This document shows, one piece after another, positions 9,673 to 35,819 of a DNA stretch of 64,000 bases. The notes under the pieces are model-generated. The model did no database searches. It was not told the origin of the DNA and worked only from the letters and a program-made list of their open reading frames with translations. Position 1 is the first letter of the stretch, and each line of letters begins with the position of its first letter. The DNA lies in the IMG/VR virus record IMGVR_UViG_3300002026_000006, positions 1 to 64,000 of that record, one strand, 5' to 3'. A program made the translations under genes and the position numbers. The DNA comes from a virus. Taxonomy: Duplodnaviria; Caudoviricetes.

Positions 9673-10447
9673 GTCTTAAACCATCGCTTACAATTTTATT
9701 TGGAGTTTTTAGGGAAATCTCTGAAAACTCTTTTTTAGATCGTACATTTTTTATAGTGATAGTTTTAAAAAATAATAATGCATCATCGACAGTAGTAAAT
9801 CCAAAATAAGTCAATGATCTGGATATAAACTTTTCTCTTTTGTTCCTTTCGACCTTTTCTATGATTTTTTCCGGGTGTCTATACTTAGAATTTTTCTTCG
9901 CAATAGATATTAATAATCTTTGTTCGTCATTTAATTTTCTTCCTTTATCTTTACGAACTTTCTTTTTCATCCCGCGAAAATGGTGATTTCCTGGTGATCT
10001 ATTCTGTTTAATTTTTAATATAGTTCCTTCTGAAAGTTTAACACCTGTTCTTCTATTAATTGTTGTAATCCTAGCCTTTTCTCGTGCCTCTTCTGTAAAT
10101 TGACCTGATATCCCATTTTCAGAAACCATGTTAGCCCAATCACGAGATTCTATAATGTTTTGTTGTTCTGAAAATTTTAAAGCAAATTCGTTTAAAATAA
10201 AAATGTCTGTGAATAAACAATACCAAAGAGTTTCTATATTTTCTTTACCATATTTTTTATAATTTCTTGTCCAATATTTTCCAGAGCCAAGATACTTCTC
10301 AACATCTTGTTGTACGGTTTTTCCAAAATAAAGAAGTCCTGTAACTTTACATCTTTTGATATAAAGAAAAGTTGGTTGGAAATTCTGGATTTGGTTTTCA
10401 GTTGGTGCTGCTAAAGCGTACTGAGCATAAATATTGAAGCTGGTCAT
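9638..10447 (-). CDS. GIY-YIG (Seg-like) homing endonuclease with NUMOD3-like motifs (cassette copy 1)
   Basis: FLYIKRCKVTGLLYFGKT...YLGSGKYW; AAGGAG RBS. Confidence 0.85.
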   Translation of the reverse strand: MTSFNIYAQYALAAPTENQIQNFQPTFLYIKRCKVTGLLYFGKTVQQDVEKYLGSGKYWTRNYKKYGKENIETLWYCLFTDIFILNEFALKFSEQQNIIESRDWANMVSENGISGQFTEEAREKARITTINRRTGVKLSEGTILKIKQNRSPGNHHFRGMKKKVRKDKGRKLNDEQRLLISIAKKNSKYRHPEKIIEKVERNKREKFISRSLTYFGFTTVDDALLFFKTITIKNVRSKKEFSEISLKTPNKIVSDGLRLRNLYFWISEL

Positions 10448-10518
10448 AAAGACTCCTTAAACTGGGTTGACTAGAGTAGGTGGATGCTGATTACATCGTG
10501 ACCTACACATATATTTAG
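10427..10518. ncRNA. nuclease-associated structured cassette, copy 1 (convergent late promoters around a two-hairpin RNA)
   Basis: ATAAATA 10427-33; CTGGTCA/TGACTAG; GTAGGT-G-GATG-loop-CATC-GTG-ACCTAC; minus-strand TAAATA 10512-17. Confidence 0.65.
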
Positions 10519-10538
10519 TGTTTTTAAATTTTAGCGTG

Positions 10539-10563
10539 AATGGGCTTAATTGCCCATTTTTTG
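10539..10563 (+). terminator. intrinsic terminator
   Basis: AATGGGC-TTAATT-GCCCATT followed by T tract. Confidence 0.65.
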
Positions 10564-10631
10564 TTTGTGATAAATATAATATGTCAGAAGTTTTTTGACG
10601 GTCACAATTTTAAATAGATGGAGAAAAGTTA

Positions 10632-12506
10632 ATGAGCGATTACAGTTTTAGTCAATACCTAAAAGAAAATAAAAACAAAGACCATTTTGAATTTATTTTG
10701 GAAACATATGAGCCATATGAATCATTCCAATTAAACGAAAATATGACTAACTTTGATGTTGGTGCTAAACAACAAAGTATCGGTAATATGAAAAAGGCTA
10801 TTGAAAAAGGAGTAGATGAACATTATTCAAAATCTCCAGAAGAAAGAAAAAAGGCAGTAGAAGAAGCAAAAGCGCACTTCAAAAATACTGATCTGCGCAC
10901 AGATGAAGAGAGAAAGTATGGCGAAGATTATAAGAAAAAGCGTGAAGAGCATAATTCTAAGCCAGAAAATAAAAAGAACCAATTGTCCAAGAGTATATTT
11001 GAAGAACCATTAATACATAACGGCGAACCAATTACTAGCACAAAGAAACACAAAATGTCCGATGCAGAAAATGCAGGAGATTATGTAATTCCTCGCGGCC
11101 CACATAAGGGAATGGGCGCTAATGTTGGTGGTATGAGATTAACCCCTGGGACAGCAAATCTAGGTCATGGCAAAGTTCTAAAAACTTGTCCTGCAGCCAC
11201 TAGAGGTTGTGAAGGTTCTTCTGGTGAACGTCAAGAATCTGGGGTATTCAAAGATGGTTTGTGTTTGGCTGCAAATAAGGGCATGGACACTACCACAAAC
11301 TCTAAGCGTGATAAACTAGCCAGAACGAGAGCATATGCGTTGCCAGAGCACCAAAAGCACTCTACTACACTAATTGCAAACGGTATCGAGAAGATGCACA
11401 AAAAAGCAGAAAAAGAAAATGCGGTAGCACACATTCGTCAACGCGATGCCTCAGATATCGATGTTATTGGTGGCGTAGTAAAAAAACATTTTGGCAGTCA
11501 TCCAACTTACATGAATGGAGCTAAAGCTAAAGCCCCTGTCGTTCAGTATGGTTATTCTAAGCACGTTAGACACAATAATGAAGGAACTGCTATAGATGAC
11601 AACCGTGAATCTGCTTCTGATAATACCGATGACGATAAAAAACATGCACCAAAAGAATACATTTATCGCTCAGATCAAGGACCAGAATTTGGGCATGACG
11701 GTAAGCCAATTCATGGCAACCGCGAGAAAAAGAAAGCTACTATTGATCATTTGAACAGTGGCGAAAATGCCCATGCTTATCTAGTAGCTGCTAGAATTCG
11801 TGATGCTGTCACTAAAGGGTCAGATTCTGATACTCTGAAGGACGTTCATACGGTCAGATATCACAAATATGATGATAAAGGTGCATATGAGGGCCATGAA
11901 GATTATGATGCAGATCGTAACAGCGAGCATGGCGATTTACATATGTATGCACCGACAGCTAAACGCAATACAACTACTGCAGATGGTCGCAAAAAAGGTC
12001 GTGTTACTGTTACTGATATTTCAGGTGGAAGTAATGCGGATATTCATGGCAACGAAATGGTTCATCCATTACATGATGTTCAAAATGTACATGACCCAAA
12101 ACACCCACATCAACATGTAACAGACGATCCTGATCATCCAAGCAAGAAAATTCTTCATGTCGATCCACCTTGGATTCCTAGAAAAAAGGTAATTCCTATC
12201 CATCATGTGTCAGAGGCAATTTCTGCTCCAGCTAAATTTAATGCGCCTAAACGACCAAACCCAGTTGACCCAAAATCTGTATATGATCGTGTGGTGGCTA
12301 AACAAGCTAAACGCGAAGCAGCAAAGAAAGTCACTGAAGAATATTCGGAAAAGCATCCAAAAATTGATTTACACAATCGGCATTCAGGTGCTTATATTGC
12401 ATCAACAAATTGGTCGCCAACTGTTAAACATGCGGTCAACGCATATGAAACCAAAAATCCAGATATGAAGGGTCATGTTCGTGGGTATATCTCCGATAAA
12501 AAGTGA
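10632..12506 (+). CDS. large His/Lys-rich protein with GP88-like central domain; candidate capsid-internal protein
   Basis: TCPAATRGC...GLCLAANKG, HIRQRDASDI, VVQYGYSK; N-terminus MSDYSFSQYLKE; late promoter ATAAATA near 10569. Confidence 0.6.
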   Translation: MSDYSFSQYLKENKNKDHFEFILETYEPYESFQLNENMTNFDVGAKQQSIGNMKKAIEKGVDEHYSKSPEERKKAVEEAKAHFKNTDLRTDEERKYGEDYKKKREEHNSKPENKKNQLSKSIFEEPLIHNGEPITSTKKHKMSDAENAGDYVIPRGPHKGMGANVGGMRLTPGTANLGHGKVLKTCPAATRGCEGSSGERQESGVFKDGLCLAANKGMDTTTNSKRDKLARTRAYALPEHQKHSTTLIANGIEKMHKKAEKENAVAHIRQRDASDIDVIGGVVKKHFGSHPTYMNGAKAKAPVVQYGYSKHVRHNNEGTAIDDNRESASDNTDDDKKHAPKEYIYRSDQGPEFGHDGKPIHGNREKKKATIDHLNSGENAHAYLVAARIRDAVTKGSDSDTLKDVHTVRYHKYDDKGAYEGHEDYDADRNSEHGDLHMYAPTAKRNTTTADGRKKGRVTVTDISGGSNADIHGNEMVHPLHDVQNVHDPKHPHQHVTDDPDHPSKKILHVDPPWIPRKKVIPIHHVSEAISAPAKFNAPKRPNPVDPKSVYDRVVAKQAKREAAKKVTEEYSEKHPKIDLHNRHSGAYIASTNWSPTVKHAVNAYETKNPDMKGHVRGYISDKK

Positions 12507-12717
12507 TTCTAGATCGGTCCGTAGACACCATACAGACCGATTAAAAGCCTCTAGGAAAGGCTACTACGGCAACAGCACACAAACCGACAAACAAGCTAAC
12601 AAAGTGGCACAAACCCCTGCTTTATGCTCTTGTTGGTCATGTGGCAACCCTAGAAAGTTTTTCAGTGAGCTAACGATTCAAGAGAAAAGAATGTTTCAGG
12701 ATAAGTTGTTGGATTAA
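12481..12717 (+). CDS. conserved small Cys-motif protein
   Basis: RRHHTDRLK...CSCWSCGNPRK; GTG start with aaggg SD. Confidence 0.6.
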   Translation: MGISPIKSDSRSVRRHHTDRLKASRKGYYGNSTQTDKQANKVAQTPALCSCWSCGNPRKFFSELTIQEKRMFQDKLLD

Positions 12718-12743
12718 AACAACAAAATAAACTTTATTTTCAT

Positions 12744-12777
12744 AAAAGGCTAGGAATTTCGGTTTCTAGCCTTTTTT
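12744..12777 (+). terminator. intrinsic terminator
   Basis: AAAAGGCTAGGAA-tttcggt-TTCTAGCCTTTTTT. Confidence 0.8.
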
Positions 12778-12819
12778 CGTGGTACAATTCAGTCTTAGCA
12801 AACGAACTAGGAAATTCAA

Positions 12820-13090
12820 AATGGAAATTACAAAATCTTCTTACAAGTTTTACAGCGATGCTGCTCATGGTTGGTTAGCTGTCAAACGTGACGAATTGGT
12901 CAAACTGAATTTGGTCAACAAGATTTCTAATTATTCTTATCAACGTGGTTCAACAGTTTACGTGGAACAGCACGGTGACATGCATCTTTTTATTGAAACC
13001 AAGAAAGAACTTGGTCAGGTCGTTGTATTGACAGAAGGTAAATTTCAAAACCGTTCGCCAATCCGCAGTTACGATCATTATGTTGGTTGA
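12820..13090 (+). CDS. hypothetical protein (YSDAAHGWLAV family)
   Basis: follows promoter copy at 12780-12797; start near the MEITK ATG. Confidence 0.65.
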
Positions 13091-13214
13091 TGCAAAAAAG
13101 CAACAAAGAAAAATAAATTTTCAAAAAGTATTGTAAACCTCAAAAAACGTGTTACAATAGAGCCTTAGTAAGTAGTTAGTAGTTTTCAACAAAGCATTTA
13201 ACAGGAGTTTCCAA

Positions 13215-13703
13215 ATGCAAGTTTCTCAAGTCCTCTCTGGTGTCCGTGGTTCTTCTTTCGTTTCAATCAACACTAAGACCGTTCCGGTTCTCGCTGGTGG
13301 TAAGAAAAACCCAATGCAAGGTCGTGTGACTAAGGTGATGGAAGGTGCAAACGGTCAAGTTTTCACCAATACCAATGTGAATGGTTACGAAAACAAGGTT
13401 AATCGTCGCCTTACTGCTGAAGGTAAAGAAGCATTTCAATTGAGTCCTCGCGTGTGGGGTTCACGGATTGAAAATACTCCTTTCGTTGAGTACAAAAACA
13501 ATTTGTATCTCGAAATGATCATGTCCACTTCTGGTAAGATTTCTTACCTGTTGGATGGTAAGCCAATCGCTAAAGCTGATATCATTGGTCTGAAAGACAA
13601 AGCTGAAGGTGATCAGGGTGGTTTGGACGAAAAAGTCATTGTCCGTACCTTTGCCGAAGATTCGATCACACAGATCAAGATCAACGGGCAAGTGTTCAAC
13701 TGA
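13215..13703 (+). CDS. conserved phage hypothetical protein
   Basis: strong AGGAG RBS, promoter at 13131-13165, biased codon usage. Confidence 0.8.
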   Translation: MQVSQVLSGVRGSSFVSINTKTVPVLAGGKKNPMQGRVTKVMEGANGQVFTNTNVNGYENKVNRRLTAEGKEAFQLSPRVWGSRIENTPFVEYKNNLYLEMIMSTSGKISYLLDGKPIAKADIIGLKDKAEGDQGGLDEKVIVRTFAEDSITQIKINGQVFN

Positions 13704-13706
13704 AAC

Positions 13707-13759
13707 AATGTCCGTAATGTCAGTCCTTAACCTAGTTAGTGGCTGATATTACGGACATT
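13707..13759 (+). other. 19-bp RNA hairpin (candidate RNase III site)
   Basis: AATGTCCGTAATGTCAGTC / GGCTGATATTACGGACATT with two G-U pairs on the + strand. Confidence 0.6.
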
Positions 13760-13817
13760 AAGACTCAAAAGTATCGTTAACGACTCAAATACTGTACACT
13801 AAAAGGAAAATTTTATC

Positions 13818-14015
13818 ATGATGGCAGCACTCTATCCCTCGAAAAAAGACCTGAAAACAAATGTCGGCAAATCTCTGGTCTATCAAGAAACCTCGATGTT
13901 TGGTGAAGAATTCAAACGTGATGGTAAATTTTGCGTGGTCGGTCCTTCACCAACTAATCGCAAATGGTTTGCTGAAGTTACCATGAAAGACGGAAAGATT
14001 TCAAAAGTTAGTTAA
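13818..14015 (+). CDS. conserved small phage protein
   Basis: YPSKKDLK..VGK.L.YQETSMFGEEF...VVGPSP..RKWFA. Confidence 0.7.
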   Translation: MMAALYPSKKDLKTNVGKSLVYQETSMFGEEFKRDGKFCVVGPSPTNRKWFAEVTMKDGKISKVS

Positions 14016-14046
14016 GTTGTTGTTCTCCTGAGTCAAATCAGGGTTG

Positions 14047-14081
14047 CCCCTAAATAGTTAAAAGCTTTTAGGGGATTTTTC
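14047..14081 (+). promoter_or_regulatory. late promoter inside an RBS-sequestering hairpin
   Basis: CCCCTAAA-tagttaaaagct-TTTAGGGG; TAAATA at 14051; AGGGG RBS before ATG 14082. Confidence 0.7.
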
Positions 14082-14654
14082 ATGGGTGCATTTTTAGAAT
14101 ATCTTGAGGAACATGTTTTGTCGATTGGATTAAATCCAGATCACGAACAACACAGAGAAAAATATCGTGACCAGATTCATGATATGATCAAAAACTCTTA
14201 TGCATATGCGGGTGGATATGGTGGCATTGAATCTGGGTCAAAAGAAGAATCCGACTCAATTCACAAAGATATTACAAACAGCATTATCAAAGCAACAAAG
14301 CGTGGTGATAAAATTACTTCTGTAAATTTGTATAGAAAACAGCACGGTCTTAAATCTATTGCTTCTGCCACTCTTGGTAAAAATCATGGGGTAACACCAG
14401 AAGAAAAGACTGCAGCAGTTAAAGATTATATGAAAAATAAAGACGAAGATAATAAACAAAAACGTGCGTGGGGTGAGGTTTCTGGGATTCCATTATCATT
14501 GGCTAATAAATTAAATGTACCAAAAGTATCAAATGACAGAGCCGAAGAATTAACTGGCAAGAAAATTATTTCAAAAAATAAAGATGGAGTTTCCTATACA
14601 AGAATAATAGGAAACTCGGAGCATGAAAAAGTTATCGTTGGTCATCCTAAATAA
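14082..14654 (+). CDS. candidate capsid-internal (late) protein
   Basis: N-terminus MGAFLEYLEE resembles the T4 capsid-targeting sequence; late promoter. Confidence 0.6.
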   Translation: MGAFLEYLEEHVLSIGLNPDHEQHREKYRDQIHDMIKNSYAYAGGYGGIESGSKEESDSIHKDITNSIIKATKRGDKITSVNLYRKQHGLKSIASATLGKNHGVTPEEKTAAVKDYMKNKDEDNKQKRAWGEVSGIPLSLANKLNVPKVSNDRAEELTGKKIISKNKDGVSYTRIIGNSEHEKVIVGHPK

Positions 14655-15408
14655 AGACATCTTCCATTTTCCAGTCTGTTAAATTTTCAGCAGACTTTCT
14701 TTTATTTTTCTTTCTGTAATCTTTTAATACCCAAAAAGAAATTTTATATTTTTCTGATAGAATTTTAAGAGTATCATCTAGATTTCCATTGGAAAACCAT
14801 TCTAGACCATCTGGAGTTGTTATTTTTACAAGTTTTGCTTTACTATTATTTGACCCTTTGTGACTGCCGTTTCGTTTTCTAGACTCTAGCATTTTTTTCA
14901 TAATTTCAGACGATTGTGATGGATACATGACACCATATTTTTCCATACACGTTTCCGTAGCTTTTTTAGTATTTGTGTATCCAGAATCTCCATATCTGTC
15001 GAGTCTAGTTTGGCATATTTTTTCTTGATTGTTATAAGAATCACTACCATACCTATCAGTCTTAGTAATTTTTATTTTTTCTACGTGAGTTTTTGTAGGT
15101 AAAGTCTTTCCATTCATACCACCAACAACTATATTGTAAGTATCTTCTTTTATAATCCAATCATGATCGACAAATATACCTTCTATTTCATATAGACATT
15201 CCCGTGTAAACGCACAAAATAAAATTTCTTTTTTAAAGTTTTCTCTTCCGTATTTAATAAAAGCTTGCTTTATAGCATTACCTGATCCTATGTAAGAATC
15301 TTGTAAGTCATTGGTAGAGTGGGCACCACGATATTTCTTGCCGTTGATAAGATTTGTGGTTTCGTAGATGATATGAAATTTATATTCATAAATAGTTTTG
15401 CTGGTCAT
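14647..15408 (-). CDS. GIY-YIG homing endonuclease with KYG repeats (cassette copy 2)
   Basis: IIYETTNLINGKKYRGAH...YIGSG...KYGRENFKKEIL. Confidence 0.85.
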   Translation of the reverse strand: MTSKTIYEYKFHIIYETTNLINGKKYRGAHSTNDLQDSYIGSGNAIKQAFIKYGRENFKKEILFCAFTRECLYEIEGIFVDHDWIIKEDTYNIVVGGMNGKTLPTKTHVEKIKITKTDRYGSDSYNNQEKICQTRLDRYGDSGYTNTKKATETCMEKYGVMYPSQSSEIMKKMLESRKRNGSHKGSNNSKAKLVKITTPDGLEWFSNGNLDDTLKILSEKYKISFWVLKDYRKKNKRKSAENLTDWKMEDVFI

Positions 15409-15480
15409 ATAGACTCCTTAACTTGGGTTGACTAGAGATAGCAGGAATTCTCAGGTTCCGTGGCTATCAGTTATATTTAG
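15388..15480. ncRNA. nuclease-associated structured cassette, copy 2
   Basis: ATAAATA 15388-94; CTGGTCA/TGACTAG; GATAGC-A-GGAA-loop-TTCC-GTG-GCTATC; minus-strand TAAATA 15474-79. Confidence 0.65.
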
Positions 15481-15540
15481 TAAAATTTAATTTGTGGTAA
15501 AAAACACACAAAAGACACATATAAACAAAAAAGTGATACA

Positions 15541-16101
15541 ATGGAGTTCTCAGAAACTCTTAACAAATTAATCATGCGACATTCAAACACTTTTGTCTAC
15601 TTTCATGGATATGGGTCGTCCTCAAAGACAGATAAAGTAGACCGAATCAAAAAAATCTATCCGAACGATAAAGTATATGCTTTTGATGCAGACATTGATC
15701 CTGATATTGCGATCAAAGAAGTCGGGGATAAGATTTTTGAAAAATTGGTGGACGACCACTCAGAAGGTAAATTGATTTTCATTGGGACAAGCCTTGGTGC
15801 ATGGTTAGCCAATGAACTATCAAACGAGTATGAGTGTCTTGCTATTTTGATCAATCCATCTTACATGCCAAGAATAACTCTAGGAAATTATGGTGTTCCT
15901 GCAAACATTGTAAAAAAATATTCTCCCATGTTACTCACAGACCTGAATCGAAAAAGGTTTTATATTGATCCTCTTGATGACGTCATCAAGCACTCTCATT
16001 TACTTTCAATTTTGCCAGAAGAAAATGTTATTCTGACGCCAGGGGTTGGTCATAGGTTCACCGGTCCAGAATTTGAGTCGATGTTGAAAAATATTTTCTG
16101 A
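15541..16101 (+). CDS. alpha/beta hydrolase, YqiA/UPF0227-like esterase
   Basis: FHGYGSS, GTSLGAW nucleophile elbow, LINP, GHRF. Confidence 0.85.
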   Translation: MEFSETLNKLIMRHSNTFVYFHGYGSSSKTDKVDRIKKIYPNDKVYAFDADIDPDIAIKEVGDKIFEKLVDDHSEGKLIFIGTSLGAWLANELSNEYECLAILINPSYMPRITLGNYGVPANIVKKYSPMLLTDLNRKRFYIDPLDDVIKHSHLLSILPEENVILTPGVGHRFTGPEFESMLKNIF

Positions 16102-16189
16102 TTTTTGTTGTTTTTTTGCTACTTTAGCAGTTTTCCTCTGTTTTTGCTGTTACAATACATACATCGACAAAACAACTTGAAAGCACAAA

Positions 16190-16597: not shown

Positions 16598-16599
16598 TA

Positions 16600-18565: not shown

Positions 18566-19687
18566 TCATTCCATTATCATAAACTCAAACAAATATCCTG
18601 CGAATATCGATCCTTCTTTTTTTGCGATATTTTTTGAAAGTACGTCTGGACGTTTACCTTTTCCGTCATATGTCCATGTAGACTTAACCTCTATTATTTT
18701 ATTTAAAGATTTTATTAACATATCTGGATGATACACATGCCATTTATCATCACCAAAACCATCTGAAGATGACCAAAAATATTTAATCGATGGTCTGTTT
18801 ATTAAAATTATGTCATCCTCGATAACCCCATTGCTCAGTAAAAAGTCTAACGCTTTAGGCTCATATCCTTGTACATTATAAGTTTTACCAGATGGAAAAG
18901 TATATTTTTTGTTGGTTCTCCTATGAGACATTATTTTATCATGTATATCAGGAACTTGACTAGAGTAGCCAATGCCATATTTATCAATCATTCCTTGTGT
19001 AGTAACTCTTATTCCATTATCACCAATTATATTTGAAGCATTATAAACACCGTATTTTAAAAATATAGAATCGGTAGAACGACATCTGACTTCTTCTGAT
19101 TGCATAGGATGTTCTACTTGATGATTATGCAGGCAAGTTTCGATTTTCTTATCTTTAACCCAATCTAATTTACTAGGATTATCCGCTCCATATTTTTCAC
19201 TCATAGTATTTTTACATTTTGTAATACCATTTTCTCCTACAATAGTAACACAATACGGAGTCCCATATATTTTTTCTGCAGTTACTTCATACTTTCTTCT
19301 TCCATCCGAATCTCTAATGTCACATGTATTATATACTCCATAATTTTTAAATAGACTTTCTTTACATTTTAATATATTAGGGGCGTAATTTTTAGAACAT
19401 TTTATGCTACAACATTCTTTAAACCTATTTAATTTATGATAAAATTCTGTGCATTCTTCACCACAGACTAAACAATATTTTTTGGCATAATCACAATTAT
19501 CTATTCTATATACAATTTCTTGAGTTAAAATCGGTGGCTTCACAATACCATTGCGAATCAAAATTTTATTTATATACTTTACCGATGCTTTATGAATTTT
19601 ATATAAGTCAGAAATTTCTTTTTTATCATCAGACGATAAAAAAGATAAGTTGATTAAAAATTCTTGATAAATAGTTTCGCTGGTCAT
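18566..19687 (-). CDS. putative homing endonuclease: Cys4 zinc finger, KYGVxN repeats, C-terminal PD-(D/E)XK domain (cassette copy 3)
   Basis: CLVC..CCSIKC; KYGADN/KYGVYN repeats; QGYEP...YHPDMLIKSLNKIIEVKSTWT. Confidence 0.75.
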   Translation of the reverse strand: MTSETIYQEFLINLSFLSSDDKKEISDLYKIHKASVKYINKILIRNGIVKPPILTQEIVYRIDNCDYAKKYCLVCGEECTEFYHKLNRFKECCSIKCSKNYAPNILKCKESLFKNYGVYNTCDIRDSDGRRKYEVTAEKIYGTPYCVTIVGENGITKCKNTMSEKYGADNPSKLDWVKDKKIETCLHNHQVEHPMQSEEVRCRSTDSIFLKYGVYNASNIIGDNGIRVTTQGMIDKYGIGYSSQVPDIHDKIMSHRRTNKKYTFPSGKTYNVQGYEPKALDFLLSNGVIEDDIILINRPSIKYFWSSSDGFGDDKWHVYHPDMLIKSLNKIIEVKSTWTYDGKGKRPDVLSKNIAKKEGSIFAGYLFEFMIME

Positions 19688-19791
19688 ATAGACTCCTTAA
19701 CCTGGGTTGACTAGAGTCACTGGGTTTTATCAGAACCGCGAGTGACATTTTTGTTGACGCACCAGAATTTTTATGGTACAATACTATTTAG
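19667..19791. ncRNA. nuclease-associated structured cassette, copy 3 (with outward sigma70 promoter)
   Basis: ATAAATA 19667-73; GTCACT-G-GGTT-loop-AACC-GCG-AGTGAC; TTGACG 19754-59 + 17 + TACAAT 19777-82; minus-strand TAAATA 19785-90. Confidence 0.7.
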
Positions 19792-21302: not shown

Positions 21303-21956
21303 ATGAAAGTTAAATTAGTCGGGTACACTCAGCCAAGTGAGGAATTTAAAAATGATTTTTCTACGGTTAAAGACTTGGTTGCATTTTGTGCTAGGGTTTC
21401 AAATCCAAGTAATCAGTTTAATACTACAACATCAGATAAACTTATTGGGTATCTGATTAAACATAAGCACTGGAGTCCATTAGAAATGGCTTCAGCGACT
21501 GTAGAAATTGAAACAACTAGAGATATTGCTAGGCAGTTGCTGCGTCATCGAAGTTTTTCATTCCAAGAATTTAGTCAAAGATATGCAGACCCTACTAAAG
21601 ATTTGGATTTTGAATATCGTGATGCTAGATTACAAGATTTAAAGAATCGGCAAAATTCTATTGTTACCGATGATATTGTTTTGGACAAAGAATGGAAAGA
21701 AAAACAAAAAGAAATTTTGGATTTAGTAAAATCTAATTATCAATGGGCCATTGATAATGGAATTGCAAAAGAACAGGCTAGAGCTATTTTGCCAGAAGGT
21801 ATGACAAAATCTAGGCTTTATGTGTCTGGTACAATCAGGTCATATATTCACTATATAGAAGTAAGAACCGATGAATCTACTCAGTTAGAGCATCGTGAAT
21901 TAGCAGTTGCTGTCGCCGCTGCTATTAATAAAATTTTTTCGATAGGTACTAATTAG
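21303..21956 (+). CDS. thyX: flavin-dependent thymidylate synthase
   Basis: [32 protein letters not shown] motifs. Confidence 0.95.
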
Positions 21957-22713
21957 TAGGCAAATCGTCAATCATTGCATACCAACCAATATATTTTCTA
22001 AATCTGTTTAATATGAAAGAATTTTTTTCTGTATAAATTCTTTCTCCATTATTTTTATAGGAAGCTTTTAATGCATTTGCTGGCAAATCATATAATGTAC
22101 AGGTTTTTGTAAAATTGCCTATACATGTATGCACCACATTATTACAATTATCGTAAATTAATATACCTTTTGCCTTACAAGAATTTGCTCCCGAGTTTTT
22201 CCCAATAAGAGAAATTGATATTTTTTTCTTCGTTTCTTCTGATCTAGGAACATTTTTATGTAAATTTAAAAGTTTTATTTTTAAATCTTCTGGCATTGTG
22301 CGCCCAAGACTATTCTTATTGCCAAGTTTACTTTTAGCCATTTTTTGTCGTGTTTGTAAAGAAACGATAACTGTTTTACCTGATGTGCCTTCACCCCCGT
22401 CTGTAAAATTGTGTAATATTCCGCTTTTAATATCAAACCTACCCCACCAATTTATCAACCTCCTTTCTAATGCAATTGAACCTAGTTCTGTCAGATTCTT
22501 TTCTATGATAATAATATTAAATTTATTTTTTGGTATTGGTAAATTACCGTGGTTATTCCAAGCACGGTAACCAGTACCCTTACCTATATAATATGGAGTT
22601 CCTGCTTTAGCAGTTTTTGAGTCTTTTGAACGAATGTAAGCATAAACGTAAAACCTTAATGGATTTGTTTTGTCTTTACTTTGGTTAACTAAATATTGTT
22701 TAATGCTGTGCAT
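21949..22713 (-). CDS. GIY-YIG homing endonuclease with NUMOD3 motifs (cassette copy 4)
   Basis: FYVYAY...PYYIGKG..RAW; [10 protein letters not shown]; NFTDGGEG; SEETKKKIS. Confidence 0.85.
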
Positions 22714-22815
22714 AATAGCCTTTCGTTGGGTTGCATAGAGTCATTGGGTTTGTCGAGAACCGCGAGTGACATTTTTGTTGACGTACCAGAATTTTCGTGG
22801 TACAATTATATTTAT
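22689..22815. ncRNA. nuclease-associated structured cassette, copy 4 (with outward sigma70 promoter)
   Basis: TAAATA 22690-95; CTGTGCA/TGCATAG; GTCATT-G-GGTT-loop-AACC-GCG-AGTGAC; TTGACG 22778 + 17 + TACAAT 22801. Confidence 0.7.
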
Positions 22816-28930: not shown

Positions 28931-28948
28931 TCAACCAAGGTACAACAA

Positions 28949-30340
28949 ATGTCAGTTTACTCAATCATCCAAGAACTCGCTGCTACACGGTCATCGAATG
29001 ACAAGAAAGCTATTTTGCAACGCGAAGTAGCTAATGAAGATTTGAAAACATTTTTCAGACTTGCTTTGTCAAATCAAATCATGTTTTATCAAAAGAAGCC
29101 AATTTCATCAACTCACAAAGTTGTTGGTTTTAATCTTGGTGAAGCAATGCTGCGACTTGAAGAAAATATTGCTGGTAGAATGATCACAGGAAATTCTGCT
29201 CGTGCTTACATTGAAGATTTGTTTAATTGGGTATCAGTTGAAGATGAATTTGTTCTGAAACTCATCCTCCAAAAGAAATCTGGGTGCGATATTGGTGCTG
29301 CTGTCGTTAATAAAATTTGGGCTAAGTTGATTCCAGAATTTCCTTGTTTGCTTGCTACGAATTGGGATGACAAACTTGGTGAAAAGTTGTTTAAATCATC
29401 AGACATTATCTACTCACAAAAAAAGTCAGATGGTTTGCGCTGTTCAATCATCATTGACGAAGATGGAAACGTGTCAGCGTACACTCGCGCTGGTAATGAA
29501 TTAAATTTGTTTGGTGTTTTTGACGGTCTAGGTCAATTTACAAAAAGTGTTGTTATTGATGGCGAACTTCTTACTACTGACAAAACTACAGGAAAATTTA
29601 ATTCTCGTCAAGTAAGCAATGGTATTTGCTCAAAAGCTATTCATGGAACAATGTCTAAAGCAGAGTCTGAACAGCTGCATATGACAGCTTGGGATATCAT
29701 ACCTCTTAAAGACTTTAAAGAAGAAAAATCAAACCTGCATTACTCAACTCGTTGGTATGATTTGCAACAGTTGCTTACGAATAATAAATCTATAAATTCT
29801 ATTATTTCTTTGATCGATACTAAAATTGTTAAAACGATTGAAGAAGCCCAAGAGCATTATCAACAAATGCAAGCTGCTGGTGAAGAGGGGACTGTAGTAA
29901 AATCTGCTGTTATGTTGTGGGAGTCGAGGCGGTCTAAGTTGCAGTTAAAATGCAAGTCAGAATTGATCTGTGAATTAAAAGTCACTGGATGGTTGCCAGG
30001 AAAAGGTGAGTTTGAAGGTAATCTTGGTGCGCTAACAATGTCATCTTCTGATGGTAAAGTAGTGGTCAACATTTCTGGATTTTCTGTCAAACTAAGGACT
30101 GAGATTTTTGCGAATTTGACAAATAAACCTGCGAGTTATGACATGGTAGTGGATGGAAATTTGAAAACATTCATTGTCAATCCAGCAGATACAGATATTG
30201 ATATTGGGGCAATCGTGTCAGTAAAATACAACGCAAAAATCAAAGATCGCAATTCTGATGTGTGGTCGTTGTTTTTGCCACGATTTGAATGTTCACGTAT
30301 GGACAAATTGACAGCTAATTCTTTTGACGAAATCAAATGA
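28949..30340 (+). CDS. 30: ATP-dependent DNA ligase (T4 gp30-like)
   Basis: KKSDGLRC, IDGELL, AWDII, EEGTVVK, KCK, SLFLPRF. Confidence 0.93.
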   Translation: MSVYSIIQELAATRSSNDKKAILQREVANEDLKTFFRLALSNQIMFYQKKPISSTHKVVGFNLGEAMLRLEENIAGRMITGNSARAYIEDLFNWVSVEDEFVLKLILQKKSGCDIGAAVVNKIWAKLIPEFPCLLATNWDDKLGEKLFKSSDIIYSQKKSDGLRCSIIIDEDGNVSAYTRAGNELNLFGVFDGLGQFTKSVVIDGELLTTDKTTGKFNSRQVSNGICSKAIHGTMSKAESEQLHMTAWDIIPLKDFKEEKSNLHYSTRWYDLQQLLTNNKSINSIISLIDTKIVKTIEEAQEHYQQMQAAGEEGTVVKSAVMLWESRRSKLQLKCKSELICELKVTGWLPGKGEFEGNLGALTMSSSDGKVVVNISGFSVKLRTEIFANLTNKPASYDMVVDGNLKTFIVNPADTDIDIGAIVSVKYNAKIKDRNSDVWSLFLPRFECSRMDKLTANSFDEIK

Positions 30341-30774
30341 ACATTAACACTGGAAGAGCAGATGCTATCTGCGATATCGATAAAATAGAGAAAAAATATA
30401 AAGCTACTTGGGTAGGTCAGTTATCTCTTAAAACAACATCAGGTAATTGGACCACTGACAATTGCGGTGACGTTTACTATCAAGAATATCCTCTACATGA
30501 TGGATTTTCAAAATATTTTGCTCTTGTTATTCAGCAAGGCGATTTGTTTATTACATCTGGGGCTTCTGCTGTTGAAGGCATTATAACGGCAGTAGAAGCT
30601 GATGATGGCGAAATCATATACTCAAGGTACACTCACGACTATCGATGCTCTCAAGACGATTCTGTTTTTATAGATGGTGGAAGATCGTATGTAAGAACAG
30701 GTGTTGGGTATAAACTACACCATCTAAAAATAGTTGACGGTAAGTTTGTGAAGTGTGATACAATTCAGTCTTAG
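30337..30774 (+). CDS. conserved phage hypothetical protein
   Basis: YSRYTHDYR...FIDGGRSY. Confidence 0.75.
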   Translation: MNINTGRADAICDIDKIEKKYKATWVGQLSLKTTSGNWTTDNCGDVYYQEYPLHDGFSKYFALVIQQGDLFITSGASAVEGIITAVEADDGEIIYSRYTHDYRCSQDDSVFIDGGRSYVRTGVGYKLHHLKIVDGKFVKCDTIQS

Positions 30775-30804
30775 GTTAAATGAAACAACAAACTTAGGAC
30801 TGAA

Positions 30805-31104
30805 ATGCTTACACCACTGACCACTCAAGAACAAGCCCTCATTGTCAAAAACGTAGTGTCTGCTTGCAAAAACATTGACCGACTCAATGGAACTGGTTAT
30901 AAATTTATCAATCTTGCATGTGGGTTTATTGCTCACTACAATCTTGGTGGTTTCAAAGATTTTTATTCAAGGTATTCTCTGAAAGCTGATATTCGTCGCC
31001 ATGCTAAATCAAATATGTGGGACAATTTCAGGGTCGGTGAACAAAATTATGAGTATTACATGACCAAAAAAGCGGTTTATAAAGCAATTCTCGAAAAACT
31101 TTAA
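30805..31104 (+). CDS. hypothetical protein
   Basis: follows promoter TACAAT-TCAGTCTT at 30759. Confidence 0.7.
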   Translation: MLTPLTTQEQALIVKNVVSACKNIDRLNGTGYKFINLACGFIAHYNLGGFKDFYSRYSLKADIRRHAKSNMWDNFRVGEQNYEYYMTKKAVYKAILEKL

Positions 31105-31115
31105 AAGGAAATATT

Positions 31116-31343
31116 ATGATTAAGTGGAATCAAAAAGTAAAAGATATTGTAGCTCAAAATGATCGTATGAACGATTTCTACAACACTGGTATGGTCCAAA
31201 AGGCAAGTGTGGAAGATTTTGTTGAGGATATCGTTACTATGTGTGCTCAAGTGGCAAATGATGCTGGTCTTTCTCGGATTCCTGCTAGTGAATATCCTAA
31301 CTTGATCATGGAAGAATTCGGATTTTCTAAATCTAAAAAGTGA
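31116..31343 (+). CDS. hypothetical protein
   Basis: AAGGA RBS. Confidence 0.6.
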   Translation: MIKWNQKVKDIVAQNDRMNDFYNTGMVQKASVEDFVEDIVTMCAQVANDAGLSRIPASEYPNLIMEEFGFSKSKK

Positions 31344-31352
31344 GAGTTAATC

Positions 31353-31643
31353 ATGGTTTCTTTTGAATTTATCGGTTGGTGTAATGAAGGCGAAGGCAAT
31401 CACGATAAAATTTGGTGCAATTTTAAAGTAGAAAATACTTGGTATTGTGCTTGGGGTCGTCGTGGTGCCAAATTGTCATTCAAAAAACATCCAAGTTTCC
31501 ATTCGGTGAGTAAAGTTCAACGGTCTAAGGAAAATCGATACAAACCAGTTGATCAATTTTTGATGTTTAGTATTTTCCCCACATTTGAAGAAGATTTGGA
31601 GCAGACATTAGTTATGTCTACTCTTGCAGGTAAAGTCAAGTGA
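31353..31643 (+). CDS. WGR-domain-like protein
   Basis: NHDKIW...CAWGRRG. Confidence 0.6.
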   Translation: MVSFEFIGWCNEGEGNHDKIWCNFKVENTWYCAWGRRGAKLSFKKHPSFHSVSKVQRSKENRYKPVDQFLMFSIFPTFEEDLEQTLVMSTLAGKVK

Positions 31644-31705
31644 ATCTGACCGATTATCAAGCCTTCTATAACGCAAGAGAAAGCATAAATTTAGATGAAA
31701 TTAAT

Positions 31706-31918
31706 TTATTTTTTTGATGTGTCTACGATATCATCATAATCATAAATTGTCAGAATTTTGTTATGCTTCAGCATATTCTTAGCAACAATATGTAAATCCA
31801 AATCAGATTTTGCGTCTTCTCTGGAATATTCAAACAATCTTATTAAAAGAGGAATATCTAAAGTCACGGTATCTTCTTTTTTATTTGTATATTTTTCTAT
31901 TAGATTAGATATATGCAT
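31706..31918 (-). CDS. small late (probable virion) protein
   Basis: TLDIPLLIRLFEYSREDAKSDLDLH; perfect TATAAATA late promoter on the minus strand near 31937-44. Confidence 0.7.
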   Translation of the reverse strand: MHISNLIEKYTNKKEDTVTLDIPLLIRLFEYSREDAKSDLDLHIVAKNMLKHNKILTIYDYDDIVDTSKK

Positions 31919-31960
31919 ATTTTACCCCTATATTTTTAATATTTATAACGGAGACTTAAC

Positions 31961-32317
31961 ATGAGTGGTGGAGAATTTAATTACTCACAATGCAGAATAA
32001 CAGAAATTGCTTATGACATTGAGCAAATGTTTGAAACCGAATATTTCAAAAGCTTAGAACCAGAGACTCAACAAGAGTTTAGGAATGGTGTTTATATACT
32101 CAAGAAGGCATTTATTTACGCTCAGAGGATCGATTGGTTAGTCTCGGGTGATGATGGTGAGGACACCTTTCATTGTCGCATAGCGGAAGATTTGGACTAT
32201 CTAAATAAGAATGAAAAATGTAATGTTTGTTGTAGCAAAGTCACAAAAGAAAAATGTGACAATTGCGGAATACCTAATTTAATGAAAATAGAGGAACCAG
32301 AAAATGGAAAAAGCTGA
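31961..32317 (+). CDS. conserved phage hypothetical protein
   Basis: MSGGEFNY...IYAQRIDWLVSGDDGEDTF. Confidence 0.75.
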   Translation: MSGGEFNYSQCRITEIAYDIEQMFETEYFKSLEPETQQEFRNGVYILKKAFIYAQRIDWLVSGDDGEDTFHCRIAEDLDYLNKNEKCNVCCSKVTKEKCDNCGIPNLMKIEEPENGKS

Positions 32318-32485
32318 TCGGCAATATCTAACCCTAGTGTTTAAAGACCCTCCAAAAGAGTTGATTTCTGAACTAACACACAAAGAAGGCTGCGTCTTCA
32401 TGTCGTGGTCACATGTACCAAATGAGCTATCTAAGCTAGTTCAACAAAATAAAAATACAGCAAAATAATACGTTGTATTTTTACA

Positions 32486-32521
32486 AAAATCCGGGATAAT
32501 CACAAGTTGTCTCGGATTTTC
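32486..32521 (+). terminator. intrinsic terminator
   Basis: AAAATCCGGGA...TCTCGGATTTT. Confidence 0.55.
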
Positions 32522-32573
32522 AATTTAAAACATGATACAATATAGGCTAAGTTAAACAACACACTGAAACAAA

Positions 32574-32765
32574 ATGAAACTTGCTGATCTTAATGAAACA
32601 CAAAAAGACAACCTGTTTGCTACATATTACACAGAAAAAATTTGCTTGTTTTGCAAGCAAGCTTTCGGTTCAGTATTTGTTGGTTCGTATACAACCGAAA
32701 AAGATTTGGAAAAAGATTTGAATCTTTTTGATATCACCGAAGTAACAATAATTGGAGCAAAATGA
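32574..32765 (+). CDS. hypothetical protein
   Basis: follows promoter TACAAT at 32536. Confidence 0.55.
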   Translation: MKLADLNETQKDNLFATYYTEKICLFCKQAFGSVFVGSYTTEKDLEKDLNLFDITEVTIIGAK

Positions 32766-33796
32766 CAGAATATATTCGCAAAATGGCTTCGATCCAGATG
32801 GTCGAAGAAGTTAAATTGATACCAGAAGCAGACAAGATTTGTGCTTATGTGATTCAAGGGTACAATGTTATCGACCAAATTGGAAAATACTTGGTCGGCG
32901 ATAAAGTAATTTTCGTTCAGCCAGATTCATTTGTGCCAAGCACTCTAACACCATTTTTGACAAAGCCAGGAAAATTCCCAAAGACTTTCAATGGTGTTGA
33001 GGGTGAGAAAATTAAAACCATCAAGTTGCGTGGTGTATATTCCCAAGGTTTGATTCTACCTATTTCGGTATGTGATTTTATTGAATCTGAATTGTTTGTT
33101 GGTCTTGATGTTTCATATCCACTTGGGATTGAAAAATGGGAACCGCCACCAGAATTTACTTCTGCTGATGCTAAAGGTCTATTTCCTGATTTTATTCGCA
33201 AGACTGACCAAGAACGGATAAACAGTTTTTTCAAAGATCACTCACATCTGTTTGAAACAGAAACATGGATAATGGAAGAAAAATGTGAAGGTTCCTCAAT
33301 CACAGTTTACTATTATCAAGGCGACTTTGGGGTGGCGTCAAGAAATTTAAGCTTACGGCGTTCTGACGAAAACACGTATTGGAAAACTGCCCTTGAGTAT
33401 GATCTAGAAAATAAACTCACAGAATTGGGCAAGAATATTGCTATACAATTTGAATTGGTTGGGCCAAAAATTTCAGGGAATATCTATAAGCTAGATAAGT
33501 TTTATATGTTTGCTTTTGATGTTTTTGATATCGATAAGCAAGAATATTTAAACCCTTCTGATCGTAGGGAATTGACAAAAAAATTAGGATTGACAGATGC
33601 GCCTGTGCTACAATCGAGACTGTCGCTAAAAGGAAAGTCTCTAGAAGACATTCTAGAAATGGCCGATGGTCAATCAGTTCTAGGTACAATAGGATGTTTG
33701 CGAGAAGGTCTGGTATTCAAAGCGCATTCTGATAAGCGCATTAGCTTTAAATCAGTTTCACGTAAATATCTAGCAAAACAAGATTCAAAGGATTAA
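32762..33796 (+). CDS. RNA ligase, DRB0094 family
   Basis: RKMASIQ...I..ADKI, IKLRGVYSQG, KTDQERI, EKCEGSS, REGLVFK, FKSVSRKYL. Confidence 0.9.
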   Translation: MTEYIRKMASIQMVEEVKLIPEADKICAYVIQGYNVIDQIGKYLVGDKVIFVQPDSFVPSTLTPFLTKPGKFPKTFNGVEGEKIKTIKLRGVYSQGLILPISVCDFIESELFVGLDVSYPLGIEKWEPPPEFTSADAKGLFPDFIRKTDQERINSFFKDHSHLFETETWIMEEKCEGSSITVYYYQGDFGVASRNLSLRRSDENTYWKTALEYDLENKLTELGKNIAIQFELVGPKISGNIYKLDKFYMFAFDVFDIDKQEYLNPSDRRELTKKLGLTDAPVLQSRLSLKGKSLEDILEMADGQSVLGTIGCLREGLVFKAHSDKRISFKSVSRKYLAKQDSKD

Positions 33797-33798
33797 AA

Positions 33799-34401
33799 AT
33801 GACAGTATGGGTTTCAGGTGATATTCATTTCAATCACCGCAATATCGCTAAGTATTGCCCAAATAGGCAAACTAAATCATATAAAGGTGAGCCTACAGAC
33901 GAATCGATTCAAGAAATGAACGAATTGATTATTTCAAATTGGAATTCGGCGGTAGATCAAAATGATGAAGTTTATATTTTGGGTGATGTTTGCCTTGGTA
34001 TCATTGCTAACAGCATCAAATATATCCCACGACTCAATGGTAAGAAGCATCTTATCAAAGGAAATCACGACAAGACTTTAGTTAAATATATACGTGAAGG
34101 CGAAAGTGTTCCTGCTGTCAATGATCTATTTGAATCGGTTCATGATCTGTGGCAATTGCATTATCGTCACAAGGAAAAGAAGATAAAGGTGTTTATGTGC
34201 CATTACCCAATGCTACACTGGCCCTCAGACTGCGAATTTGCACTGAATGGGCATACACACCTACCACCAGATAAATGCTTGTATAGCGAGTTTAAACAAA
34301 TGGACGTTTCTTTGGATGGGAATTATTTGTTTCCACGAAAGTTAGATGACGTTTTAGGTCTACTTTCAAATAAAAAGTCTCAGGGAGATCACCACAAGTA
34401 A
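33799..34401 (+). CDS. calcineurin-like phosphoesterase
   Basis: GDIHFNH, LGD, GNHD, CHYP, NGHTH. Confidence 0.88.
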   Translation: MTVWVSGDIHFNHRNIAKYCPNRQTKSYKGEPTDESIQEMNELIISNWNSAVDQNDEVYILGDVCLGIIANSIKYIPRLNGKKHLIKGNHDKTLVKYIREGESVPAVNDLFESVHDLWQLHYRHKEKKIKVFMCHYPMLHWPSDCEFALNGHTHLPPDKCLYSEFKQMDVSLDGNYLFPRKLDDVLGLLSNKKSQGDHHK

Positions 34402-34545
34402 AATTGTGGTGTGTTATCCCAAAAACGTGATATAATTTAGTTTATGAACAAAAAGGAATTTATGTACTATATTTTTCGTGATCTGCTTTTTTACGTCGTC
34501 TTAGGGATGATTGTTATGAACCTTCTTTTTATTGTGAGCCAATGA

Positions 34546-35715
34546 TTAAAGTTTAAAGTTTCTCTTTGGTATATTAATATTGCCAAGTTTAACCCATTCT
34601 TTCCTAGTTTTCATTTTCTCAGATACGACTAGATCATCATGTGGATACATGAGCTTTTCAACTCCAGACTCAGAATAAACTCTAATTCTTCCAGCGTTTA
34701 TTCTTCTATATAAAGATTTATTATTATTATATTCTTCCATAGATATATTAATAGTTTCATTTGAATTATTATATACAGTTATACCTATACCGCAATTATT
34801 ATTTATAAGATTTTTTAGTTTTATTATAGGATCGGATATATCTAGATAATATTTATTTCCTTCAGAATCTTTAAATGTTGATTTATTTGTACATGCTGAG
34901 AATAATTCCCCTGATAATATTCTTGGATCGGATATATCTACATGATATTTATTTCCGTCCTTATCTACCATATTACATTTATTTTTTGTTACTCCCACCC
35001 AATCATTATTATTTTTGTCATTGAATTCTGATAATGGAATCATTTTTCTAATTCCATTTTTATTAATAGAAGATACCATATTACGAGACATATGGACAAG
35101 TTCTCCAGTTTGCAGACGCTCATCTGATACGTCTACTTGGAATATTTTTTCGGTATTAGCAAATTTTACTGGTATTTTATTTTTAAATATATGGACAAGT
35201 TCTCCAGTTTTTATTCTTAAATCATCTTTATCGACTAAGATCGGCTTACCATCTAAAAGATATACGGCTTTCCCTTTTGTGACACCAACCAATTCTCCAG
35301 AGATATATCTAGGATCATCAATTTCAACTTGAAAAGTATTCCCTTCACTGTCAATAACAACCACCTTATTTTTAGACCTATGTTGGATTTTATCGCCAAC
35401 TAAATGATAAGACGAAGCTCTAGTGCCACCAACACATATGTTATAGATATTTCCTTTATTTTCCAATAACCAAGATTCCGAAACAAATTCCGCCTCGGCT
35501 AAATCTGCTAATTCTCTAGAAAACGCAAAAAATAAAATTTCTCTACTAAAGTTTTCTTTTCCATATTTCTTAATAGCTTTTTTTAATAATGTGCCGCTAC
35601 CTAAATATTCATCATCTAAATTATTGGTTAAATGTACACCTCTATATACTTTACCGTTTATATTGTTGGTTGTTTCATATATAAAATTAAATTCATAAAT
35701 ATTATTGCTGTGCAT
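34546..35715 (-). CDS. GIY-YIG homing endonuclease with ~8 tandem ~32-aa repeats (cassette copy 5)
   Basis: FIYETTNNINGKVYRGVH...YLGSG; repeats DxxGNxxxVDISDPRIxSGEL. Confidence 0.85.
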   Translation of the reverse strand: MHSNNIYEFNFIYETTNNINGKVYRGVHLTNNLDDEYLGSGTLLKKAIKKYGKENFSREILFFAFSRELADLAEAEFVSESWLLENKGNIYNICVGGTRASSYHLVGDKIQHRSKNKVVVIDSEGNTFQVEIDDPRYISGELVGVTKGKAVYLLDGKPILVDKDDLRIKTGELVHIFKNKIPVKFANTEKIFQVDVSDERLQTGELVHMSRNMVSSINKNGIRKMIPLSEFNDKNNNDWVGVTKNKCNMVDKDGNKYHVDISDPRILSGELFSACTNKSTFKDSEGNKYYLDISDPIIKLKNLINNNCGIGITVYNNSNETINISMEEYNNNKSLYRRINAGRIRVYSESGVEKLMYPHDDLVVSEKMKTRKEWVKLGNINIPKRNFKL

Positions 35716-35819
35716 AATGTCTCCTTAACTGTTGATAGCATAGAGTTCTTGGGTAGTTGCATACCGCGAAGAACATTTTTGTTGACGTACCAAAAATTTT
35801 GTGGTACAATACTATTTAG
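35695..35819. ncRNA. nuclease-associated structured cassette, copy 5 (with outward sigma70 promoter)
   Basis: ATAAATA 35695-701; CTGTGC/GCATAG; GTTCTT-G-GGTA-loop-TACC-GCG-AAGAAC; TTGACG 35782 + 17 + TACAAT 35805. Confidence 0.7.

Follow-up and report, generated by a model that had tools for sequence, protein, structure and literature searches.

A covarying two-hairpin RNA cassette, folded antisense to the gene, at the 5' ends of homing-endonuclease genes of uncultured T4-like phages

Five minus-strand homing-endonuclease genes in a 64 kb stretch of phage DNA (the window: the first 64 kb of the 90 kb IMG/VR virus record IMGVR_UViG_3300002026_000006, estimated to be about half complete) begin with copies of one RNA cassette. 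This module of two hairpins, P1 and P2, is conserved in sequence and structure, is known in at least 120 distinct copies with strong covariation, and has a fold under selection on the antisense strand of the nuclease gene. In uncultured T4-like phages of aquatic and microbial-mat origin, it accompanies nucleases of unrelated classes, and it is a candidate new RNA family. On balance, we favor the view that the cassette makes a cis-antisense RNA of ~75–80 nucleotides (nt) which masks the ribosome-binding site (RBS) of the nuclease, as IS10 RNA-OUT does for transposase. Among the selfish elements of T4-like phages, homing endonucleases predominate, and to our knowledge their restraint in these phages is known from only a handful of coliphage genes.

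The original prediction, made from the letters of the window alone, placed five cassettes at the 5' ends of five minus-strand nuclease genes, and all of them are present there. A covariance model built from ten copies (R1) matches the 90 kb record at 10422–10518, 15383–15480, 19662–19758, 22686–22782, and 35690–35786 with 74–102 bits, and nowhere else in that record. Read along the plus strand, each copy consists of (A/C)TAAATA, 5 nt (9 nt in copy 4), GCTG, P1, a single A, P2, another A, and a T-rich stretch with TATTTA(G/T). The P1 arms are CTGGTCA/TGACTAG or CTGTGCA/(T)GCATAG and enclose the complement of the Shine-Dalgarno (SD) sequence and the ATG. P2 is built from a 6-bp outer stem, one R-Y pair that two bulged Gs flank on the 3' side, an inner stem of 4 bp, and a loop of 6–8 nt. 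The P1 arms, the P2 outer arms, the inner 4-bp stems, and the R / G-Y-G element are thus as first described, with two corrections: the linker between P1 and P2 is the single A (TGACTAG-A-GTAGGT) and not AGA, and the pairing of the P1 arms, which holds for the copies generally, is reduced in copy 5 to six pairs instead of seven by the 3' arm AGCATAG.

Among 44 distinct copies, 99.0% of cells pair, compared with 76.5% after shuffling and 27–48% when the partners are slid; P2 is 99.6% paired, with double changes at 9 of its 11 pairs. In 67 further copies of a compact variant, which were aligned with plain MAFFT without fitting to any structure, 96.4% of cells pair, P2 is 99.9% paired, again with double changes at 9 of 11 pairs, and P1 shows double changes at 5 of 8. 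Both hairpins are also predicted independently by RNAalifold. Covariation in both sets is far above chance, which bears out the proposal of compensatory change rather than plain duplication and supports a real, conserved two-hairpin element tied to mobile nuclease genes. The P2 loops begin with Y-U in most copies (YUNR at loop position 1 in 20 of 44), and the P2 bulges sit below the loop; loop starts of the Y-U type and bulges below the loop are usual in antisense recognition hairpins. An inner P1 helix (ACUC/GGGU) predicted by RNAfold was dropped, as it is 81% paired, which is the level of shuffled sequences, and has no covariation support.

On the strand antisense to the nuclease, the 44 copies contain 61 G-U or U-G cells, 17 of which are spread across seven P2 pairs, and 0 A-C cells. 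The R-Y pair is G-C in 27 of these copies, A-U in 10, and G-U in 7, and in the 67-copy set it is G-C in 48, G-U in 13, and A-U in 6; A-C occurs in neither set. In addition, all 44 copies are more stable when folded as the plus strand, with a mean of -20.4 kcal/mol against -13.7 kcal/mol for the minus strand. Because G-U occurs without A-C, the R-Y pair is never A-C, and plus-strand folds are more stable, the selected structure is that of an RNA antisense to the nuclease. The strand of the fold is the main departure from the T4 textbook case, in which the hairpin lies in the sense mRNA (PMC2988022).

The family was collected in several steps. Three pattern scans of IMG/VR yielded five foreign copies (of these early patterns, pattern 2 mainly picked up a conserved coding stretch with no relation to the cassette, and three matches of pattern 3 were false), and a sixth was found via the covariance model. 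A metagenome pattern scan with cmsearch then gave 57 matches, which represent the 44 distinct copies; its pattern fixed GCTGKKCATA, GMMTAGRG, RG, and CGYG. A second pattern, keyed on the invariant P2 letters and TATTTA, fixed TAGAG, RG, CGYG, CA, and TATTTA and detected at least 120 loci. The P2 stems and the plus-strand TAAATA box were left free in both patterns, and the P1 stem in the second. Among the 80 loci listed, all 88 matches have 6 of 6 outer-stem pairs, at positions left free by the pattern. Together, the covariance model and the two pattern scans detected at least 120 further distinct copies in contigs of uncultured T4-like (Kyanoviridae-like) phages. The majority of matches in the scan with P2 and TATTTA belong to the compact variant, whose layout is TAAATA, nnCAT, GCTG, a P1 of 8–9 bp with a loop of ~7 nt that carries CUCCUU, A, and P2. 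When a model (R2) was trained on foreign copies of this variant alone, it recovered the same five window copies at 44–56 bits; thus, the compact and window variants form one family.

Searches against known sequences returned no counterpart. With Rfam 15, only tRNAs and a tmRNA were found, and the cassettes, both the window copies and those of five foreign loci, had no match at the gathering score or at E <=1. Megablast and blastn searches of the window DNA and both cassette variants against 50,697 phage records gave nothing relevant, and neither R1 nor R2 had a credible match in the cultured phages Melnitz-3, HTVC008M, P-TIM40, and S-PM2 (one match in HTVC008M scored 18 bits). A 17.6-bit match in S-PM2 was rejected, as it falls within a virion-protein (structural) gene.

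The original prediction had proposed a covariance-model search of phage metagenomes for an association with gene context, and in that search nearly all copies precede homing-endonuclease genes. The open reading frames (ORFs) behind the cassette are almost all homing endonucleases of several classes, including GIY-YIG, HNH, Vsr-like, and DUF7487. In the first set, 17 of 31 ORFs match phrog_314, and HNH families, DUF7487, DUF559/Vsr, NUMOD3, and a C2H2 finger also occur; in the second set, phrog_314 accounts for 45 of 67 ORFs and many HNH families are present. About a quarter of the complete nuclease ORFs are truncated (22–113 amino acids), with same-strand ORFs continuing downstream (L009, L065, L072, L074, L090). 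These short ORFs may be frameshifted or decaying selfish genes, or assembly errors; the cassette is intact even where the nuclease ORF is truncated. Neighboring genes are opposite to the nuclease in about two-thirds of the loci and co-oriented in one-third, some of the latter directly after gp23 and a bidirectional terminator. The fold and the plus-strand box persist in both flank orientations, and their retention at co-oriented loci implies that the plus-strand RNA serves the nuclease gene and not merely plus-strand neighbors.

The boxes that bound the cassette resemble late promoters. NATAAATA has been reported as the late promoter of Kyanoviridae-type phages (PMC2984593), and the T4 late box spans -13 to -6, so that it lies 5 nt before +1 (PMC2988020). 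In the window phage, (A/C)TAAATA stands before 9 of 12 structural-gene gaps. In 33 of 44 copies, precisely 5 nt separate GCTG from the preceding plus-strand box of the cassette, (N)ATAAATA, so with T4 spacing +1 falls on the G preceding P1. The TAAATA-N5-GCTG spacing is kept in both variants while the position of the ATG moves: in the window variant, the ATG follows GCTG and ORFs start M-T-S-x-x-I-Y, and in the compact (major) variant, it precedes GCTG and ORFs start M-x-I-Y. The box of copy 4 sits in a different codon phase, and codon 5, whose amino acid varies, ends in T in 36 of 44 copies (the genome frequency of T at third positions is 42%). The spacing across variants, the phase of copy 4, and the T of codon 5 place the constraint on DNA and not on the peptide; the shared Ile-Tyr is best read as an imprint of the DNA signal, and a shared cassette explains why unrelated nucleases have the same first few codons. 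On the minus strand, a box lies 2–7 nt beyond P2 in 33 of 44 copies, and therefore the nuclease mRNA would begin at, or a few bases inside, P2' (a prime denotes the complement of a hairpin in the nuclease mRNA). The 8 nt after P2, which are the same letters as the minus-strand box, contain 4–7 T in all 44 copies, and P2 has a mean energy of -10.6 kcal/mol.

These results directly support the two-hairpin fold and the strand on which it is selected, the association with nucleases, and the presence and spacing of promoter-like boxes. From the sequence we infer the production of an RNA, its 3' end, and repression, as follows. The cassette would serve its free-standing homing-endonuclease gene as a compact module for the control of expression, with two convergent T4-type late promoters ~85 bp apart. 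The minus-strand box would drive the nuclease mRNA, with its 5' end at or just inside the base of P2', and the plus-strand box, located in the first codons of the nuclease, would start a small RNA at the G of GCUG. This RNA would fold into P1, which displays the anti-SD sequence, and P2, and would most likely terminate downstream of P2 within the U-rich tract, whose sequence complements the sense promoter. The predicted product of ~75–80 nt would be the full complement of the leader, SD, and start region of the nuclease mRNA, and pairing would block ribosome binding or trigger cleavage of the duplex, keeping the nuclease scarce. Because the G-U positions of the small RNA are A-C mismatches in the mRNA, the regulator would be stably folded and the mRNA leader open. 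The cassette has both a convergent opposite-strand promoter, as far as its sequence indicates, at the 5' end of the gene and a stable antisense stem-loop complementary to the SD/start region. Thus, among the functions first suggested, that of an antisense regulator fits, given the fold on the antisense strand, the late box at the right distance, and the complementarity to the SD and start; to call it an antitoxin is a stretch because nothing shows addiction. The cassette is also a candidate compact, self-contained part for the control of expression.

Several observations weigh against a cis-antisense RNA. The P1 region is nearly invariant across phages, which is needless for cis-antisense pairing and implies some further constraint. 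Of 44 window-type copies, 7 have a plus-strand box other than TAAATA, and in a wider set of 84 copies about half depart from the exact arrangement: 41 have exact TAAATA-N5-GCTG and 17 have a box with one mismatch (TAAGTA, TATATA). Some of these changes keep Ile-Tyr, so selection on the peptide is possible in part, and an imperfect box in a sizeable minority of copies weakens the promoter argument. With regard to the other end, a simple consensus terminator scan does not call P2, whose stem has two bulges, and canonical terminators stand 20–60 nt beyond the cassette at several loci, which makes the 3' end of the small RNA uncertain. Moreover, the cassette occurs in none of the cultured phages tested, and a search of sequencing runs for the window sequence found only DNA runs of the microbial-mat study and no RNA run.

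A different explanation, which we regard as unlikely, is that the cassette acts as an insulator resembling PeSL elements (stem-loops plus early-promoter motifs; PMC4122927). Its hairpins would then function within long plus-strand phage transcripts and produce no discrete regulatory small RNA: P2 and the U tract would terminate antisense read-through over the nuclease gene, and the embedded boxes and a sigma70 promoter would restart downstream expression. Plus-strand neighbors in the window and at about two-thirds of the loci agree with this idea, as does the U-rich tail after P2 in all copies, and promoters for downstream genes are known to lie within endonuclease genes of T4 (PMC2988022). 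The feature that defines a PeSL, a stem-loop with an immediate sigma70-type promoter, is found in copies 3–5 of the window and in L065; in copies 3–5, a near-consensus rightward TTGACG-17-TACAAT promoter is inserted between P2-ATTTTTG and TATTTA and aimed at the next gene, and in L065, too, such a promoter follows P2-ATTTTTG. However, this promoter is absent from copies 1–2 and most of the at least 120 relatives, and the module, including its plus-strand box, is kept at loci with co-oriented neighbors that already lie beside a strong bidirectional terminator. A terminator would also leave unexplained P1, the fixed spacing from box to P1, the invariant bulged Gs, and the link to nuclease genes.

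The cis-antisense reading can also be extended, although with little likelihood in our view, to a portable "lock" in which P1 is a near-universal RBS mask and the variable, copy-specific P2 a kissing hairpin that serves as a private address for each gene. With a nearly universal mask, the small RNA of one copy could silence all other copies, including nucleases of co-infecting phages, which would amount to multicopy inhibition or cross-phage exclusion of homing. The near-invariance of P1 would fit such silencing in trans, since copies 1–3 differ at 1–3 of 38 positions, and a lock of this kind would represent an unrecognised RNA layer in the contest of phages with one another and of the homing endonucleases that they harbor.

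Control of the T4 type, in which hairpins in the nuclease mRNA leader act in sense, P1' sequesters the RBS, and a late promoter times translation, is established for T4-family endonucleases such as I-TevI, segB, and Aeh1 mobE (PMC2988022), and it is also the reading given to metagenomic endonuclease leaders (PMC2677866). The late-promoter-like box upstream of every nuclease gene and the location of the SD and ATG within P1' agree with it, but all wobble positions turn into A-C when the sense strand is read (61 to 0), each of the 44 copies folds less stably in sense, and for copies 2, 3, and 5 the sense fold does not surpass that of shuffled sequences (z-scores +0.17 to -0.79). Read in sense, the SD lies in a loop instead of a stem, so that no sense hairpin pairs with it, and the stem has an invariant A-C mismatch. 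Furthermore, the late box is upstream of both hairpins (upstream of P2') and not inside the RBS hairpin P1', and hence late transcripts would not escape that hairpin; the predicted mRNA start also cuts into P2' in about half of the copies. Sense control is therefore very improbable. That the plus-strand RNA is a protein-binding element, a ribozyme, or a cofactor or guide of the nuclease, functions which had also been suggested, is most improbable of all: the invariant G-Y-G bulge motif and near-invariant P1 do exceed the needs of simple antisense pairing, but no Rfam family matches even at E <=1, neither a known model nor one cognate nuclease family, as for HEARO/omega-RNA-type guides or self-cleaving ribozymes, was found, the GIY-YIG, HNH, Vsr-like, and DUF7487 nucleases that it accompanies have unrelated folds and no common RNA-binding domain, and the conserved P1 loop is an ordinary SD complement.

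The five window genes that carry cassettes (9638–10447, 14647–15408, 18566–19687, 21949–22713, and 34546–35715, all on the minus strand) match homing-endonuclease families, four of the GIY-YIG type and one DUF7487. Their description as unrelated holds only in part: copies 1, 2, 4, and 5 all match the GIY-YIG-type phrog_314, and only copy 3 (DUF7487) belongs to another class. Nuclease gene 1 (9638–10447) encodes a GIY-YIG-like protein of 269 amino acids (phrog_314 homing endonuclease) that starts MTSFNIY. Its plus-strand late-promoter-like box ATAAATA (10427–10433) lies within codons 5–7 and 5 nt before GCTG (10439), and is followed by the P1 hairpin CTGGTCA/TGACTAG (10440–10474), whose loop is the SD complement and whose 5' arm spans the ATG, and by P2 (10476–10506; 6-bp outer stem, R-Y pair between two bulged Gs, 4-bp inner stem, 7-nt loop). 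The minus-strand box CTAAATA (10512–10518), 5 nt before the base of P2', reads as the U-rich tail on the plus strand. Thirty nt beyond this copy, the plus strand has a canonical intrinsic terminator (10538–10559, GGGC-TTAATT-GCCC then TTTTTT).

Copy 2 (15388–15480, plus strand), at nuclease gene 2 (14647–15408, minus strand, 253 amino acids, GIY-YIG), comprises ATAAATA (15388–15394), GCTG (15400), P1 (15401–15435), P2 (15437–15468), and the minus-strand CTAAATA (15474–15480). Nuclease gene 3 (18566–19687, minus strand) encodes 373 amino acids of the DUF7487 class, not GIY-YIG. The core of its cassette (19667–19746, plus strand) has ATAAATA (19667–19673), GCTG (19679), P1 (19680–19714), and P2 (19716–19746), then ATTTTTG and the inserted outward sigma70-type promoter TTGACG-17-TACAAT (19754–19782, plus strand), which is back to back with the minus-strand CTAAATA (19785–19791). 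At nuclease gene 4 (21949–22713, minus strand, 254 amino acids, NUMOD3, phrog_15526/314), the cassette (22689–22815, plus strand) contains CTAAATA (22689–22695), GCTG 9 nt on (22705), P1 (22706–22738), P2 (22740–22770), the promoter (22778–22806, plus strand), and ATAAATA (22809–22815, minus strand). Copy 5 (35695–35819, plus strand) precedes nuclease gene 5 (34546–35715, minus strand, 389 amino acids, SegE-like GIY-YIG) and has ATAAATA (35695–35701), GCTG (35707), P1 with six pairs (35708–35743), P2 (35745–35774), the promoter from TTGACG at 35782 to TACAAT at 35810 (plus strand), and CTAAATA (35813–35819, minus strand). The inserted promoter of copies 3–5 contains a palindrome, G(T/C)ACCA...TGGTAC (19760–19782, 22784–22806, and 35788–35810), which would add a third, 5'-terminal hairpin to the nuclease mRNA.

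The source of the record is a microbial-mat metagenome assembly. The window phage is T4-like, with a gp63-like RNA ligase and two encoded tRNAs, whose genes (8932–9015 and 9037–9108) lie directly to the left of nuclease gene 1, and cassette-bearing relatives have gp23 capsid genes 62–64% identical to those of Kyanoviridae (Melnitz, HTVC008M, and cyanophages). Genes between 8 and 38 kb in the window are nearly all on the plus strand behind TGnTACAAT-type promoters. Plus-strand extended -10 elements of the GTGNTACAAT type were observed at 2609, 5373, 12779, 13149, 15533, 17212, 19773, 20915, 21826, 22797, 30755, 33605, and 35801; these are probably early promoters of the window phage. In the gap at 46254–46377 between divergent baseplate-region genes (45408–46253, minus strand, and 46378–47196, plus strand), there are two facing ATAAATA boxes, whose leaders would be complementary across ~90 nt, together with TAGTGG...CCACTA and a CCTAGAG word; neither R1 nor R2 matches this gap.

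Among the other contigs, a nuclease with its cassette lies immediately downstream of gp23 and co-oriented with it in several (L057:8334–9593, L074:6246–7544, and L099:363–1682). This position corresponds to the segD neighborhood of T4, here co-oriented with gp23. Strong bidirectional terminators follow the cassette in L057, L071, L074, L085, L099, and L100. One IMG/VR contig with two cassettes (L108) has a permuted, alphaproteobacterial-type tmRNA at 6830–7225 (91 bits), which hints that some cassette-bearing phages infect Alphaproteobacteria.

The original prediction held that nothing similar was known. This holds only in part: hairpins in leaders with late promoters (PMC2988022) and in metagenomic sequences (PMC2677866) had already been described. 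Late promoters and leader hairpins on phage homing-endonuclease genes are textbook knowledge (PMC2988022). Like the T4-family leaders of I-TevI, I-TevII, segB, and Aeh1 mobE, the cassette has a late promoter directly upstream and a hairpin over the RBS and start (PMC2988022). Unlike them, with their sense-acting hairpin and the late promoter inside it, its fold is selected antisense, it has a second convergent late box inside the ORF, and it is conserved in sequence across unrelated nuclease classes.

A possible earlier description is that of Dassa et al. (2009), who reported conserved hairpins with TATAAATA, read on the sense strand, upstream of free-standing endonucleases in their study of "fractured genes" (PMC2677866). 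These also accompany GIY-YIG and Vsr-like endonucleases from marine and freshwater metagenomes and share with the cassette a late-promoter element, hairpins conserved at the 5' end, and a pair of conserved motifs that complement each other (PMC2677866). Their hairpin was taken as a translational element of the sense strand, and their description includes neither a second hairpin nor covariation, a strand test, or an antisense promoter. Judged from the description, it may be the present cassette seen from the opposite strand. The fractured-gene arrangement itself was checked in our loci: the neighbors examined are gp23, a helicase, a Clp protease, and Hsp20, and none of them is a split intein.

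Two other phage elements share parts of the cassette. CfrI of cyanophage S-PM2, a T4-like phage of the Kyanoviridae, is an antisense RNA that covers a homing-endonuclease gene and has been detected by experiment (PMC2984593, PMC5931967), but it is ~225 nt, links psbA to F-CphI, and is not homologous, S-PM2 having no credible model match. PeSLs, with a stem-loop and then a sigma70 early promoter at the edge of variable genes, fit the P2-promoter part of copies 3–5 (PMC4122927); however, they are simple stems that show no association with nucleases, late boxes, or an RBS hairpin.

In its proposed logic, the cassette is like antisense RNAs of insertion sequences, IS10 RNA-OUT (PMC5006887) and IS200 art200 (PMC4513863), whose pairing blocks initiation. 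The cassette differs from these in that it resides in a lytic phage, would control a homing endonuclease instead of a transposase, has T4-type late boxes as both putative promoters, and has two hairpins and a conserved bulged-G motif, with no sequence similarity. It resembles IS10 RNA-OUT/RNA-IN and IS200 art200 in a promoter, putative in the cassette, that lies where the gene begins and faces the sense promoter from the opposite strand; in a stably folded RNA of ~70 nt, predicted in the case of the cassette, which is complementary to the translation-initiation region (PMC5006887, PMC4513863); and, presumably, in its purpose, namely to limit the amount of a selfish enzyme. Should the small RNA be real, then this type of control, in which an antisense RNA restrains the enzyme of its own mobile element and which has been described to date for insertion sequences, would extend to phage homing endonucleases.

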